DNA from: a virus
UHGV virus genome: UHGV-0120889
DNA: 64,000 nt
Strand: one strand, 5' to 3'
The notes beneath the pieces were generated by a model. It was not told where the DNA came from. It did no database searches and saw only the letters and a program-made list of their open reading frames with translations. Position numbers and translations under genes: made by a program. Positions 3,797 to 44,752 of the stretch are shown here, piece after piece (the stretch's first letter is position 1; each line of letters opens with the position of its first letter).

Positions 3797-4045
3797 TTAT
3801 CCTCTCCTGCGCTTAGCTTTCGCAGCAGCTGCGGCAGCCTTCTGCTCCCGCTCCATTTCCCTGTTTTGGACGGTATCTAGGAATTCTTCGATATCAAGAT
3901 ACTCACAGAGCTTCAGGAAATACGCCATATCTGCAAGATTTAGCGATTCAAAATTTTCCCCTTTGAAATTCTTGAGCACCCTGCACCAAAGAAAGTCGAA
4001 CCAGTTGAGTGAACTGTTCTTGGCTGCCCACTCACTGGCCCTCAC
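3797..4045 (-). CDS. tail assembly chaperone, downstream frame (possible frameshift extension)
   Basis: Small ORF between chaperone-like gene and tape measure; its frame stays open upstream into the 3' end of the 4057..4530 gene. Confidence 0.4.
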   Translation of the reverse strand: MRASEWAAKNSSLNWFDFLWCRVLKNFKGENFESLNLADMAYFLKLCEYLDIEEFLDTVQNREMEREQKAAAAAAKAKRRRG

Positions 4046-5176: not shown

Positions 5177-6553
5177 TTATTCAGTCATTGCAACAGCATT
5201 GGTGGATTTAGAACCAACTTTGTCCAGAAGGACGTTGATCCGGATACGAACGAAGTGCAGGGCGTTGTTATACACCAGTTCTACTTTCACACCTTCCAGA
5301 ACACGAGCAGCCAACTGATTGGTTGGAATCTCTGCACGTTTAGGAACTGTGATGATCGGGTCGTAGAACACATTGTTGTCTTCGTCAAAACCTGTCAGGA
5401 TCGCACCATTCTTAATGCCAGTGTTGATTGGGTTGTTCATCAGGACAGACTTGATAACCGGAAGATCATCATCAGACATCTTCATGCTTAAACCCATGTT
5501 GGAGCGACGATGCATGTACCCAAACATAGATTCTTCAGATCTGAACTTGATCCAGTGTGCAAAACGAATAGCGTCTGCATACTGACCTGAAGCACACTTA
5601 CCTTCCCAGAAAGCGCCAACACCGTTAATCATTCTGTAGAAGTTAACGTGGTTTTCCCAAATAGCCATACGCTGAGTTAAAGTCAGAGACGGTGCAATCA
5701 CACCTGGCATCTGTTTTAAGTGCAAGCTGTCGCCGTAGGACGGATCGTTGGATGCCATAGCACCTATGATACCACCCTCCGGGAAGTCCTTATCTGCACG
5801 AGGATCGTACATGCCAACACTGTCATATTGTGCAGCTTTCAGTTTGGTAGCGATGTTACTATCTTTGCCAGTCACATCTTCTGCAGTAGAGTAGACGTGC
5901 AGCTTGTAGTTGGCCTGAGCCCACTTAGCACATGCTTCAATGTCGGTGTGGTCTTCATGGCACAGGAAGTACCAATTGTCCCGCTCAGCATTGATCTTAT
6001 CAACTACTGTAGAAGGTTTTTCAGCATTGGCGATATTTTTAATTGTATAGTTACCAGTATGATAACCTACAGTGCAGTCACCAGTGATGGTGATAACACC
6101 GTCTTCAGCCGCTACAGTAATATCGTCCAAGTTATCATCTGCTTCGATTTTAGTCTTCATGGACTCTGCGATCTGAGTTGCAGCTGTCCCACCAGAGATA
6201 GGAACTATCAAAGAGGTATTGTAGCCACCTTTTGCAATAGTCATTACTACATCGGTATCAGCTGCGGCAGCAATACCTTTAAAATCTACAGTGGTTTTTT
6301 CTTTGGCCTGTCTGCCGATCATAACATATTGTGGAGGGAATACACCACCAAAAGCTTTTGCTGCAAACTCATACGCTGCAGAGCCTTGTGCGAAACCATC
6401 TTCCACCATCTGATCCAGCTCCGCATATACGCGAGCTCGCTCAGTAAAGTTGTTGTGGATAGCGATGAACAGGGGAGTTTCGAAACCTACAGTGTCAATA
6501 GGTTGGGTTCCGAGGTTAACTGTAACATCTACCACTTTATCTAAATATGGCAT
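5177..6553 (-). CDS. tail sheath protein (458 aa)
   Basis: Size and position upstream of tube gene; large ORF with no antisense competition; call by synteny. Confidence 0.6.
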   Translation of the reverse strand: MPYLDKVVDVTVNLGTQPIDTVGFETPLFIAIHNNFTERARVYAELDQMVEDGFAQGSAAYEFAAKAFGGVFPPQYVMIGRQAKEKTTVDFKGIAAAADTDVVMTIAKGGYNTSLIVPISGGTAATQIAESMKTKIEADDNLDDITVAAEDGVITITGDCTVGYHTGNYTIKNIANAEKPSTVVDKINAERDNWYFLCHEDHTDIEACAKWAQANYKLHVYSTAEDVTGKDSNIATKLKAAQYDSVGMYDPRADKDFPEGGIIGAMASNDPSYGDSLHLKQMPGVIAPSLTLTQRMAIWENHVNFYRMINGVGAFWEGKCASGQYADAIRFAHWIKFRSEESMFGYMHRRSNMGLSMKMSDDDLPVIKSVLMNNPINTGIKNGAILTGFDEDNNVFYDPIITVPKRAEIPTNQLAARVLEGVKVELVYNNALHFVRIRINVLLDKVGSKSTNAVAMTE

Positions 6554-40730: not shown

Positions 40731-41009
40731 ATGAGCTGCGAAAAATCTTTTTTCATCATCATTTACGGTAAGGATAACTGCCCACATTGTGTCAGAGCAA
40801 AAGAATTTGCAATCAGCAAAGGTCTGCCTTTTGTATATAAGACACTTGGCGAGGGCTACACAAAAGAAGAGCTTATTGAGAAGTGCAGTCCAATCGTCCC
40901 CCGAACGTTGCCGCAGATCTTCTTAGAAAGCGATCTTGACAGTATCCATATAGGCGGTGCCGACGATTTCATCTCTTTTGTTAAGAATGGTTTTGGAGAG
41001 AAAAAGTGA
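40731..41009 (+). CDS. glutaredoxin/NrdH-like redoxin
   Basis: CPHC active-site motif in 92-aa protein between nrdB and nrdD. Confidence 0.65.
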   Translation: MSCEKSFFIIIYGKDNCPHCVRAKEFAISKGLPFVYKTLGEGYTKEELIEKCSPIVPRTLPQIFLESDLDSIHIGGADDFISFVKNGFGEKK

Positions 41010-41869
41010 AAGTTGTAAAACGGGACGGTAGAGAAGAGTTCTATAACGGAATTAAGGTGATCAAGGCGGCAGAGTCCGCCTTACTTGAGTCTGGACATAC
41101 TGAAGAAGAAGCTTACCGGATCGCTTGTGCGGTTAATGAAGTTGTTGCTAACAATCTGCCAACCGACCAGTGCACGATCTCTGTAAAAAATATCCATATC
41201 CTTGTTGAAGATGCTCTTATGGATATGGGTTTAAAATGTGCAGCCAGAGAATACATCCAGTATAGACAGACAAGAGATAATAACAGAGAGGCAGGTGGAA
41301 AACTACTTGCAGATATTAGTGGCTTCTTGGATCGAACTTGTGATGAATTTACAAAAGAAAACGCAAATAAGCCCACTAATCATGTACACACTCATCGTGA
41401 CCTGCTTGCAGGCATCCTTAGCAAACACCTTGCATCAACACAGATCCTGCCAGACCGTGTTTCAGAAGAGCACAATAAAGGCTTCATCCATGTGCATGAT
41501 CTTGACTACTTGATCAGTCCGTTAACAAACTGTTGTTTGGTAAATTATCCAGATATGTTGGAAAACGGATTCAACATTGGCAACGCCCATGTCAGTAAGC
41601 CGAAGTCAATAGGGGTTGCAACAACAATCCTTAGTCAAATCTCTAGCGCGGTAGCTAGTGCTCAATATGGTGGTCAGACTATGAGCCATATTGATCATTA
41701 TCTGGCACAGTATGCTGAAGCAACCTATGAGAAGAACCTTAAATTTTGCCAGGAACATTGGTTGCCGGATGCTGAAACTGTTGCAATGCAAATGACAGAT
41801 AAAGATGTATTTGACAGCATGCAGACTTTGCTCTATCAAATCAATACGTTAACCTCTGTCAACGGTTAA
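41006..41869 (+). CDS. nrdD: anaerobic ribonucleoside-triphosphate reductase NrdD, exon 1 (3' boundary approximate)
   Basis: ATP-cone start MKVVKRDGREE, IHVHDLD and NCCL motifs; ORF ends where intron-like sequence begins. Confidence 0.7.
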   Translation: MKVVKRDGREEFYNGIKVIKAAESALLESGHTEEEAYRIACAVNEVVANNLPTDQCTISVKNIHILVEDALMDMGLKCAAREYIQYRQTRDNNREAGGKLLADISGFLDRTCDEFTKENANKPTNHVHTHRDLLAGILSKHLASTQILPDRVSEEHNKGFIHVHDLDYLISPLTNCCLVNYPDMLENGFNIGNAHVSKPKSIGVATTILSQISSAVASAQYGGQTMSHIDHYLAQYAEATYEKNLKFCQEHWLPDAETVAMQMTDKDVFDSMQTLLYQINTLTSVNG

Positions 41870-42717
41870 CAAACTGGCCGTTGTAAAACTCTCCTAACCT
41901 CATAAGAGGGGTCGGTAAATCCGGCTAACGGGGAACGCTAAGGCGAAAGCTATGCCAATCCCGTGACTAGTTCTTACAGGAGTTGGAACGGTTGTAACGA
42001 CTAACGAAAGGCAGAGATGCTTGACAAACATTTCTGAACCAAGTAGTGTAGGGGTTAGTTGAAATACTAACTTCGAAATGGAGAGGCTCTATGAAAAAGA
42101 TCATTCTTAATGGTGAAGAATCGAACTATGTGATTGATGAGGTTGGAAACGTATACGGAAAACGTGGAATGCTACACCCAATATTGTGGGGAGGTTATGG
42201 AAAAGGTAACAAGCATGTTAAACGCCGTTATATGTACTCTTTCAACCACAAAGGTAAAAAGATTCGAATCCAAACCTCAAGGGTTGTTGCCTTGTATTGT
42301 TTGCCAGATGTCCCAGAAGACCCTGAAAACTGGGAAGTGAATCATAAAGATGGCAATACATTGAATGATCATCCGTCTAACCTAGAGTGGGTTTTGCCGG
42401 AAGATAATAAGAGACATGCTTTCCGAACAGGACTTTGTCCAGGTAAGTGCTATAGGAAAGTGCAGGCATACAAAGGGAAAATCTTGGTGGGTGAATATCC
42501 TTCACTCTATGCCTGTGCAAAAGCCTTAAATTTGAACGTAGGTAACGTTCACAGGGCTATCGAAGGAAATGCCGAAGGTAAGCATCTCACAATAAAGGGT
42601 TATTATCTTATTGAAGTAGAGTAAGAGATAGTCTGGCCCTGTGGAAACACAGGGAGGAGACAGCAGACTCCATTCATCACATTAAGTTTAGGACTAGATA
42701 CCTCGGTCTTTGGTAGA
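41870..42717 (+). mobile_element. putative group I intron in nrdD carrying an HNH homing endonuclease gene (boundaries approximate)
   Basis: ~850 bp interrupts nrdD between N- and C-terminal halves; contains free-standing HNH ORF; flanking non-coding parts are structured. Confidence 0.55.
42091..42624 (+). CDS. HNH homing endonuclease (intron-encoded)
   Basis: Classic HNH motif EVNHKDGNTLNDHPSNLEWV; located inside nrdD intervening sequence. Confidence 0.75.
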   Translation: MKKIILNGEESNYVIDEVGNVYGKRGMLHPILWGGYGKGNKHVKRRYMYSFNHKGKKIRIQTSRVVALYCLPDVPEDPENWEVNHKDGNTLNDHPSNLEWVLPEDNKRHAFRTGLCPGKCYRKVQAYKGKILVGEYPSLYACAKALNLNVGNVHRAIEGNAEGKHLTIKGYYLIEVE

Positions 42718-43926
42718 ATGATTACCAAAAACTACTTGAAAGTCCACAAAATGGGTCTTGGTGAAGAACGTATCACACCTGTGTTCCCTAAAGTGCTGTT
42801 CTTCCTGGAAGAGGGTGTCAACATGAACCCTGGGGATCCTAACTATGATTTGAAACGATTAGCTCTGGAATGCTGTGCAGAACGTATCTATCCTGACTTC
42901 GTATCTGTACCACTAAATAGAAAAGTGACAGGCTCGACAGATGGCAAAGTAACTAGCATGGGTTGCAGGAGTTTTCTTAGCAAATACAATGACTTGGAAA
43001 CAGGCGAGGAGAAATACCTTGGCAGATTTAACTTAGGCGTTGTTAGCCTTAACCTGCCAATGATTGCGGCAAAAGCTAAAACGGAAGGTGTTGATTTCTT
43101 TGCAGTTCTTGACGAATACCTGGATCTTGCATACGAGGCTCACCTTGTAAGGGTTAATCGTCTAAAAGGGACAAAGGCAGGGCAGAACCCTATCATGTGG
43201 TGTGAAGGCGCTCTTGCTCGCCTGGACCCTGAAGAGAGTATTGATAAACTCTTCTATGACGGGTACGCTTCCATCAGTATTGGGTATATTGGTGTGTATG
43301 AAACCTGTCAGATTTTGGGCAGAGAGGGTGACAAGGCTTTAGCTCTTGGAATCCTTCAGCACATGAGAGATGCTTGTGAGCGACACAAGAAGGAAAGTAG
43401 ACTAGCGTTTAGCTTGTACGGCACCCCTTCTGAGAGTCTATGCTATAAAGCTGCAACCTGTCTGGATCGTGAATATCCTGAAGTGTTGAAGCACGAGCAT
43501 GAATATCTCACCAACAGTTTCCATCAGCCAGTATGGATCAATAGCTCTCCTTTTGATAAGTGGGAGTATGAGGAAGGTTTTGCTATGATCTCCTCTGGTG
43601 GCAACATCGGATACGTAGAGACACCAAATCTGAAAAACAACTTAGATGCTTTGGAAGCTCTTGTTGATTTCGGATATAAACACATTATGTATTTTGGTAT
43701 TAACCAACCTGTGGATAAATGTCTCAAGTGTGGTTTCTCTGGTGAGTTCAGTGCAACAGCTAAAGGCTTTGTATGCCCAGAGTGTGGAAACCATGAAGAG
43801 GGAACGATCAGTGTAATTCGACGTGTGTCTGGATACCTTTCCAGTCCTAACTCCCGTCCTTACAATAAAGGTAAGCAAGCGGAAGTTATCGAGCGAGTTA
43901 AGCACTACGGAAGTTGTGGTTGCTGA
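42718..43926 (+). CDS. nrdD: NrdD exon 2 (5' boundary approximate; frame open from 42625)
   Basis: C-terminal zinc ribbon CLKCGFSG...CPECGN and glycyl-radical motif RRVSGYL. Confidence 0.7.
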   Translation: MITKNYLKVHKMGLGEERITPVFPKVLFFLEEGVNMNPGDPNYDLKRLALECCAERIYPDFVSVPLNRKVTGSTDGKVTSMGCRSFLSKYNDLETGEEKYLGRFNLGVVSLNLPMIAAKAKTEGVDFFAVLDEYLDLAYEAHLVRVNRLKGTKAGQNPIMWCEGALARLDPEESIDKLFYDGYASISIGYIGVYETCQILGREGDKALALGILQHMRDACERHKKESRLAFSLYGTPSESLCYKAATCLDREYPEVLKHEHEYLTNSFHQPVWINSSPFDKWEYEEGFAMISSGGNIGYVETPNLKNNLDALEALVDFGYKHIMYFGINQPVDKCLKCGFSGEFSATAKGFVCPECGNHEEGTISVIRRVSGYLSSPNSRPYNKGKQAEVIERVKHYGSCGC

Positions 43927-43989
43927 TTCTTGACAAAAGCCACAAGAATGTGGCATATTATTGACACACAGTGAGCTAGGAGGTGCAGT

Positions 43990-44106
43990 ATGTCATCAGG
44001 TATTTATAAAATTTGCAAGTGCGGCTGTAGTTGTAATCTTCGTTGGTGCAAGGCACTAGACGATTTTATTTGGCATTGCCCTAAATGTGATGCGGAGTAT
44101 CTATGA
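43990..44106 (+). CDS. small Cys-rich zinc-ribbon-like protein (38 aa)
   Basis: AGGAGG RBS 6 nt upstream; CKCGCSC...WHCPKCD; stop overlaps nrdG start. Confidence 0.45.
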   Translation: MSSGIYKICKCGCSCNLRWCKALDDFIWHCPKCDAEYL

Positions 44107-44638: not shown

Positions 44639-44752
44639 ATGGCTAAAAAAGCCTTGAAGAAGGCGTACAAGAAAGAGATTGCGCTTGAGCTTAAGAAAAA
44701 ACACAAGCGTGAAAAGAAACATCATGAAGATGAAGAGGGGGTGCAACAGTGA
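44639..44752 (+). CDS. small highly basic protein (37 aa)
   Basis: GAGGAGG RBS; Lys-rich MAKKALKKAYKKEIALELKKKHKREKKHH. Confidence 0.4.
   Translation: MAKKALKKAYKKEIALELKKKHKREKKHHEDEEGVQQ

Follow-up and report, generated by a model that had tools for sequence, protein, structure and literature searches.

Organization of the nrdD-nrdG region

The DNA analysed here belongs to an rV5-like Escherichia phage of the genus Vequintavirus and carries a micro-ORF of 38 codons between nrdD and nrdG, the genes of the anaerobic ribonucleotide reductase (RNR) and its activase. We refer to the whole stretch of 64,000 nt as the window, and the positions of its features are given in Table 1. The micro-ORF runs from the ATG at 43990 to a TGA stop at 44104-44106. 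The seven cysteines that an earlier note on this DNA had pointed out can all be read from the sequence, at positions 9, 11, 13, 15, 20, 30 and 33, and make up three overlapping CxC motifs and one CPKC. Likewise present are the AGGAGG ribosome-binding site, the place of which is taken by AGGAGG, AGGAGA or AGAGGT in the micro-ORFs of relatives, and the overlap with nrdG, an ATGA at 44103-44106 in which the TGA of the micro-ORF shares bases with the nrdG start codon (44103-44105). A GGAG within the last codons of the micro-ORF is probably the Shine-Dalgarno sequence of nrdG, and the same bases are marked as the nrdG RBS in the GenBank record of phage Murica, so that the micro-ORF would carry the ribosome-binding site of its downstream neighbour.

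The predicted promoter sits in the 63-nt gap after nrdD and is kept in the Vequintavirus relatives, not in the lineages of contigs L005, L006 and L030. The hairpin within its spacer belongs to a stem-loop after the nrdD stop that is kept in position, not in sequence (GCCACA/TGTGGC in the window, also GAGCACA/TGTGCTC and GGGCCAG/CTGGCC); stem-loops of differing sequence occupy this position in L030 (about 3960-3978), L006 (about 5950-5970) and L005. In all large-phage lineages, the micro-ORF follows nrdD within about 50-65 nt. Upstream, the nrdD gene of the window (41006-43926) is split into two ORFs by an insert that contains an HNH_3 endonuclease ORF and a sub-threshold match to a group I intron; nrdD is uninterrupted in rV5, EdH4 and Murica (2124 nt) and has different insertions in L005, L006 and L030. 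Further downstream, a 37-aa Lys-rich ORF lies behind a perfect promoter, and since a counterpart of this phrog_7670-type ORF (MSKKTLRKAYQKELALELRGKKRK...) directly follows nrdG in Seunavirus KE23, the Lys-rich ORF is linked to nrdG more widely than the Cys-rich micro-ORF.

Table 1 Features of the nrdD-nrdG region and of the loci compared with it. Positions are those of the window unless a contig is named.
Feature	Position	Strand	Basis or remark
Other seven-Cys ORF, 39 aa	37891..38010	-	TTG start; probably a chance antisense ORF
nrdD, first ORF	41006..41869
HNH_3 endonuclease ORF in the nrdD insert	42091..42624
Group I intron match	42367..42654		Rfam, sub-threshold: 28.7 bits, E 1.8e-4
nrdD, C-terminal part (glycyl-radical domain, own CxxC...CPxC zinc site)	42718..43926	+	Pfam NRDD E 2.8e-105, Gly_radical
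Predicted sigma-70-like promoter, TTGACA-18-nt spacer-CATATT, TG extension	43930..43959	+	Consensus scan, 10/12 matches + TG
6-bp hairpin GCCACA-AGAA-TGTGGC	43939..43954	+	Just after the nrdD stop, in the promoter spacer
Shine-Dalgarno sequence AGGAGG	43978..43983	+	Read from the sequence; 6 nt before the micro-ORF ATG
Micro-ORF, 38 aa, MSSGIYKICKCGCSCNLRWCKALDDFIWHCPKCDAEYL	43990..44106	+	ORF listing; seven invariant Cys; member of phrog_20137
Weak terminator-like hairpin and T-run inside the micro-ORF	44043..44069
GGAG in micro-ORF codons Ala35-Glu36	44094..44097	+	5 nt before the nrdG ATG; probable Shine-Dalgarno sequence of nrdG
nrdG, class III RNR activase, 157 aa	44103..44576	+	Pfam Fer4_12 E 1e-42, Radical_SAM E 1.5e-9
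Lys-rich ORF, 37 aa, MAKKALKKAYKKEIALELKKKHKREKK...	44639..44752		phrog_7670; behind a perfect TTGACA-18-TATAAT promoter
rV5 'ORF 114', 75 codons	L010 2936..3163		DQ832317 87773..88000; other frame across the micro-ORF
nrdG allele	L010 3502..3975
nrdG allele	L006 6162..6635
Vectrevirus slot alternative	L023 799..915		Micro-ORF, start codon to ATGA overlap
Vectrevirus slot alternative	L024 799..972		Micro-ORF, start codon to ATGA overlap
Vectrevirus slot alternative	L004 3998..4108		Micro-ORF, start codon to ATGA overlap

A catalogued and very narrow family

The micro-protein belongs to a family (phrog_20137) that is already catalogued yet uncharacterised, and very narrow. The earlier note had taken the gene to be unannotated, which is true of some records, such as those of EdH4 and Murica, from which it is omitted; many Vequintavirus records in GenBank have the product as a hypothetical protein. 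The identical protein is found in GenBank/UniRef under this name (QXV81303.1, JohannBauhin bas53_0180; Shigella phage CM1 and others), and QXV77650.1 (bas50_0184) is a further Vequintavirus entry of the family. The match to phrog_20137 (PHROGs v4, E 4.7e-30) places residues 1-38 on profile positions 1-38 of 38. Besides the 38-aa form, we found a 41-aa variant (P0010) and variants of 53-54 aa with a Lys/Glu-rich N-terminal extension (P0004-P0009), the latter coming from uncultured relatives of 130-140 kb; these long variants and a homologue in the podovirus ACG-C91 (see below) match the same profile (E 8e-21 and 5e-23, respectively).

With megablast, a 1.1-kb stretch around the micro-ORF matches 120 phage records, 71 of which cover at least 80% of the query, with identities of up to 99.4%. 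This E. coli rV5-like region is also matched by 18 unannotated GenBank records entitled 'Campylobacter phage' (MG0656xx, host C. jejuni); five listed ones match the query over its full length at 95.6-98.8% identity, and the host label looks doubtful. Searching 1.84 billion representative proteins with a profile returned only relatives of the micro-protein itself and two spurious repeat proteins. Three loci were found in IMG/VR and five real loci in metagenomes, where one more match (L020) was discarded as off-frame in high-GC bacterial DNA, and a scan of 185,579 genomes (GTDB) gave none; taken together, the matches of these scans are limited to Vequintavirus-like contigs and ACG-C91. A sequence search of the PDB did not assign the micro-protein to any family, its sole match being a knuckle of ribosomal protein eL43, and our search of the literature for the family, its locus tags and its motif found no mention.

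The names under which the micro-protein is filed are of little help. In PHROGs and in several RefSeq records it goes by 'ribonucleotide reductase', a label that is unsupported, as neither an NRDD nor a Radical_SAM domain is present, and that appears to derive from the neighbouring genes. Neither Pfam (E up to 1) nor NCBIfam (E up to 10) gave a match, be it to NRDD/Gly_radical, to Radical_SAM/Fer4_12 or to any other family, and with both searches empty the name 'HTH-type transcriptional regulator' used in one MAG is unsupported too. The original rV5 record has a 75-codon 'ORF 114' in another frame across the micro-ORF; with a pN/pS of about 1-1.8 that frame is free of coding constraint, and ORF 114 is probably a mis-called gene.

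The reading frame is under purifying selection

A frame that is not conserved in relatives had been named in the earlier note as the result that would refute its proposal, and we found the opposite. Selection was analysed on the 33-codon core, of which 20 loci gave 12 distinct nucleotide versions; the loci are those of Vequintavirus isolates, of a more distant lineage represented by metagenome contigs, and of one podovirus. The pN/pS in the frame of the micro-ORF is 0.08 (pS 0.58, pN 0.046), as compared with 0.19-3.8 in the remaining five frames of the same 12 versions, and the variable sites are distributed over codon positions 1, 2 and 3 as 9, 3 and 23. At the protein level, the seven cysteines are invariant together with K7, K10, G12, N16, L17, R18, W19, K21, L23, D24, D25, I27, W28, P31 and L38. 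Of 122 phage records compared by tblastn, 121 have the micro-ORF in full length. As judged from these substitution patterns, the micro-ORF is a genuine protein-coding gene under strong purifying selection.

Neither an ORF of 38 codons nor richness in cysteine is decisive by itself, and it is conservation that decides: the six frames of the window contain 648 ORFs of 30 aa or more, and besides the micro-ORF one of them, on the antisense strand (Table 1), has seven cysteines, the binomial expectation for such ORFs being 0.06 per window.

We also noticed two damaged copies. In a 1.5-kb metagenome contig (L031, 652-840), codons 1-20 of the micro-ORF are joined to the C-terminus of a homologue of ORF116, a gene that follows the micro-ORF in rV5, and in phage Alma (P0002, OV101294) a shift of 1 nt turns the ending AEYL-stop into ARVL plus 23 residues. 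Both may be genuine variants or may stem from errors in assembly or sequencing.

Predicted fold and candidate zinc ligands

The cysteines of the family follow the pattern C-x(1,2)-C-x-C-x-C-x4-C-x9-C-x2-C in a free-standing peptide. The second knuckle, CP(K/E)C, is invariant, and in the micro-protein it forms part of an IWHCPKC that is identical to the zinc-ribbon knuckle of eL43. The first knuckle reads CKDCG or CKHCG in the long and 41-aa variants, and CKCG, that is CxC and not CxxC, in the 38-aa variants. An AlphaFold2 model of moderate confidence (mean pLDDT 67.6) predicts three strands (residues 16-20, 25-30 and 35-37) that form a three-stranded sheet, and a Foldseek comparison with the PDB gave no significant match (best E 1.8), its top matches being zinc ribbons (the N-terminal ribbon of a Nudix protein, RPB9, ELOF1 and ZifS). 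The CPxC knuckle, the CxxCG of the long variants and the three predicted strands speak for the zinc ribbon named in the earlier note, and the CxC in the first knuckle of the 38-aa form and the lack of a significant fold match speak against it. On sequence and model, a zinc ribbon is the most likely fold of the 33-residue core; since the first knuckle of the short variants is CxC rather than CxxC, the putative zinc ligands of the 38-aa form are uncertain in identity.

The micro-protein resembles the eL43/L37ae zinc ribbon and stand-alone zinc-ribbon micro-proteins in the IWHCPKC knuckle, the predicted three-stranded sheet and a length of about 35-40 residues. It differs from the eL43/L37ae ribbon in having seven rather than four cysteines and, in the short variants, a CxC first knuckle, and the two share no significant sequence or fold match. 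The C-terminal Zn(Cys)4 site of NrdD has CxxCG...CPxC knuckles too and is encoded only about 150 nt upstream of the micro-ORF; hhalign aligns just an 8-residue knuckle (probability 14%) and the spacing is off by four residues. The micro-ORF is not a split-off piece of NrdD, as NrdD here keeps its complete zinc site.

The gene neighbourhood varies among related phages

Downstream of the micro-ORF, we distinguished four arrangements. In the type of the window and in the long type, the TGA of the micro-ORF overlaps the ATG of nrdG directly. Phages of the rV5 type (rV5, DrSchubert and others) have a micro-ORF that ends with TAA and is followed by ORFs of 34 aa (ORF115) and 78 aa (ORF116) and then by nrdG, and in L030 only the 34-aa ORF (ORF115) follows, separated from nrdG by a gap of 70 nt. 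The fourth arrangement, in ACG-C91, is described in the next section. The coupling to nrdG that the earlier note emphasised is thus borne out for the window, by the GGAG 5 nt before the ATG and the ATGA overlap, but does not extend to the rV5 clade or L030.

Seunavirus, a sister genus, and Phapecoctavirus have no gene at this place, their nrdD and nrdG sharing 4 nt, and in Certrevirus CB7 NrdG and NrdD have consecutive gene numbers (PMC7344957). The direct overlap of the two genes in sister genera points to the micro-ORF as a lineage-specific insertion between two ancestrally coupled genes. A Cys-rich micro-ORF beside nrdG was also sought in Felixounavirus, Arno162, Slopekvirus and Jiaodavirus, and none was found.

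NrdG itself occurs in at least three alleles with a mutual identity of 49-55%, found in phages that are otherwise closely related (the window, L010 and L006, Table 1). The core of the micro-protein is 88-94% identical across the same three Vequintavirus-like lineages, similar to the C-terminus of NrdD (89-100%), and we observed no sign of co-variation of the micro-protein with the three NrdG alleles. The last 35 or so residues of NrdG are nearly identical between the alleles of the window and rV5, which suggests that the 5′ two-thirds of nrdG have been exchanged by mosaic replacement.

An exchangeable cassette in Vectrevirus ACG-C91

A homologue of the micro-protein with 36 aa and 77% identity is encoded by the podovirus vB_EcoP_ACG-C91 (Vectrevirus, 43.7 kb), its core being 78-84% identical to those of the Vequintavirus-like lineages. 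The gene is located between the genes of a nucleotide kinase (SP6 gp24-like) and of DNA ligase, begins in a TGA-T-ATG arrangement and ends with an ATGA onto the ligase start. Neither the annotation nor tblastn revealed nrdD or nrdG in ACG-C91. Other Vectreviruses are 97-98% identical on either flank of this slot and have it filled by a 38-aa CPxC...CxxC protein, unrelated to the micro-protein, or by an ORF of 57 aa that lacks cysteine, with the change of sequence falling precisely on the start codon and on ATGAATAT. This exact start-to-stop switch between nearly identical flanks indicates that the micro-ORF is one of several interchangeable cassettes in the slot (Table 1). Judging from the junctions, the micro-ORF is mobile as a cassette; the evidence from ACG-C91 is that of a single isolate, whose copy may have arrived recently, as a passenger, from a donor outside the sampled phages.

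The 38-aa alternative found in K1E/SHAK7163-type Vectreviruses (MTCPNCGSEETEHVVMSDTYHFYFCHSCDTTIEEEEAV) shares with the ACG-C91 micro-ORF the slot after the kinase and overlapping the ligase, the length and the Cys knuckles. It differs in having four cysteines only, and homology is not detectable beyond one knuckle (hhalign probability 35%); it bears a weak, sub-threshold resemblance to Lar-type zinc ribbons.

Discussion

The micro-protein, which we take as the founding type of the phrog_20137 family, belongs with the small stand-alone Cys-knuckle proteins of phages, and its seven-Cys pattern is unusual. We consider it fairly probable, based on sequence comparison and the structural model, that it is a lineage-specific stand-alone zinc-ribbon-like micro-protein, an autonomous and exchangeable accessory that is co-expressed with nrdG in this phage and is not an obligatory subunit of the phage anaerobic reductase. 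According to this scenario, the micro-ORF would have entered between nrdD and nrdG, which ancestrally overlap, on the branch from which Vequintavirus and its nearest uncultured relatives descend. It would be expressed from its strong Shine-Dalgarno sequence and probably from a sigma-70-type promoter of its own. The product may fold in the order of an N-terminal knuckle C-x(1,2)-C-G, a beta hairpin NLRWC...DFIW, the CPxC knuckle and a third strand AEY, with four cysteines from the N-terminal cluster and the CPxC holding a structural zinc ion and with C13, C15 and C20 as a candidate second metal or redox site, or an interface. As the last codons of the micro-ORF hold both the putative nrdG Shine-Dalgarno sequence and the stop/start overlap, synthesis of NrdG would be mechanically coupled to the micro-ORF, ribosomes that terminate on it re-initiating on nrdG and tying the output of NrdG to it. 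The micro-protein itself would bind some macromolecular partner that is common to infections of E. coli. Its steady place right after nrdD in every large-phage lineage could reflect function rather than mere linkage.

The earlier note had suggested a redox or metal-delivery partner of NrdG. In a broader form, the micro-protein would serve the anaerobic RNR as its dedicated redox or metal (Zn or Fe-S) accessory, perhaps helping to load or reduce the [4Fe-4S] cluster of NrdG or relaying electrons like the tail of the class II enzyme, and this we regard as possible but doubtful. In its favour are the constant placement of the gene between nrdD and nrdG, seen in three or four large-phage lineages that have diverged and in most of which it is stop/start-coupled to nrdG, three invariant cysteines beyond the need of a zinc ribbon, and the glutaredoxin gene located just upstream of nrdD in the window. 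There is also a precedent in class II RNR, where a Zn(Cys)4 finger and a redox Cys pair take part in turnover: the C-terminal Cys-rich zinc finger of NrdJd has six cysteines in the array C-x2-C-x9-C-x2-C-x2-C-x5-C (PMC5704485). As a small, RNR-associated Zn(Cys)4 module with extra cysteines, this domain is the nearest functional analogy for a role as RNR accessory, but it is a covalent tail, belongs to class II and not class III and spaces its cysteines differently, and its six-Cys array is not found in the micro-protein; nor could homology to the zinc site of NrdD be detected. An accessory subunit would be expected to co-occur with nrdD and nrdG and not to occur without them, whereas the micro-ORF is missing in six phage groups, including sister genera with the same nrdD-nrdG pair and the nrdG neighbourhoods of Felixounavirus, Arno162, Slopekvirus and Jiaodavirus, and is intact in ACG-C91 in the absence of a phage RNR. 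There is no coupling to nrdG in the rV5 clade and L030, and the micro-protein takes no part in the divergence of the NrdG alleles, so the partnership proposed earlier finds weak support.

The copy in ACG-C91 could be accommodated if the micro-protein were linked to the host enzymes, as E. coli supplies an NrdD and an NrdG of its own there. A corresponding proposal sees in the peptide a metallo-redox module of minimal size (Zn(Cys)4 with a redox-active triad of cysteines, or a small Fe-S centre) that aids the activation or turnover of class III RNR in anaerobic infection, acting on host or phage NrdG/NrdD; action on the host proteins would explain the survival of the micro-ORF in ACG-C91, and we nevertheless hold this proposal to be unlikely. 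If the peptide did serve class III RNR, it would be the first free-standing accessory factor described and a new component of a well-studied radical enzyme system; the evidence points away from a role in the anaerobic reductase.

It is very unlikely that the micro-ORF is a selfish or neutral hitch-hiker that brings the phage no benefit, perhaps the remnant of a mobile element in a homing-endonuclease hotspot around nrdD and nrdG. Such an origin would fit the HNH-endonuclease insertions that interrupt nrdD in the window and its relatives, an indel-prone region just downstream of the micro-ORF, the movement as a cassette and the rare damaged copies (the C-terminus of Alma and the L031 fusion), but the low pN/pS at saturating synonymous divergence and the invariance of the seven cysteines in every lineage would not be expected of a neutral remnant, and the ORF has no similarity to endonuclease domains. 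That the micro-ORF is only a regulatory leader, a Cys-codon-rich uORF or attenuator whose translation itself controls nrdG, as its seven Cys codons, the nrdG Shine-Dalgarno sequence inside it, the stop/start overlap and the weak terminator-like hairpin with T-run (the Murica record marks a terminator) might suggest, is largely refuted and scarcely credible, since it is the amino-acid sequence and not the RNA that is conserved, folding of the region shows no gain over shuffled sequence (z-score -0.03), the T-run is lost in ACG-C91, and the ORF is equally conserved where its stop is TAA and no gene overlaps.

The micro-ORF is an example of a strongly selected phage protein of 38 residues that is often missed or mis-framed by gene callers, and of a cassette that is exchanged exactly from start to stop between unrelated phages. 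It also illustrates how names spread by neighbourhood, from the reductase genes to the micro-protein and, in phrog_13972, from the ligase: the best PHROG match of the 38-aa Vectrevirus ribbon is this family, with a weak E value of 2.8e-4, and its label 'DNA ligase' was apparently taken from the adjacent gene.
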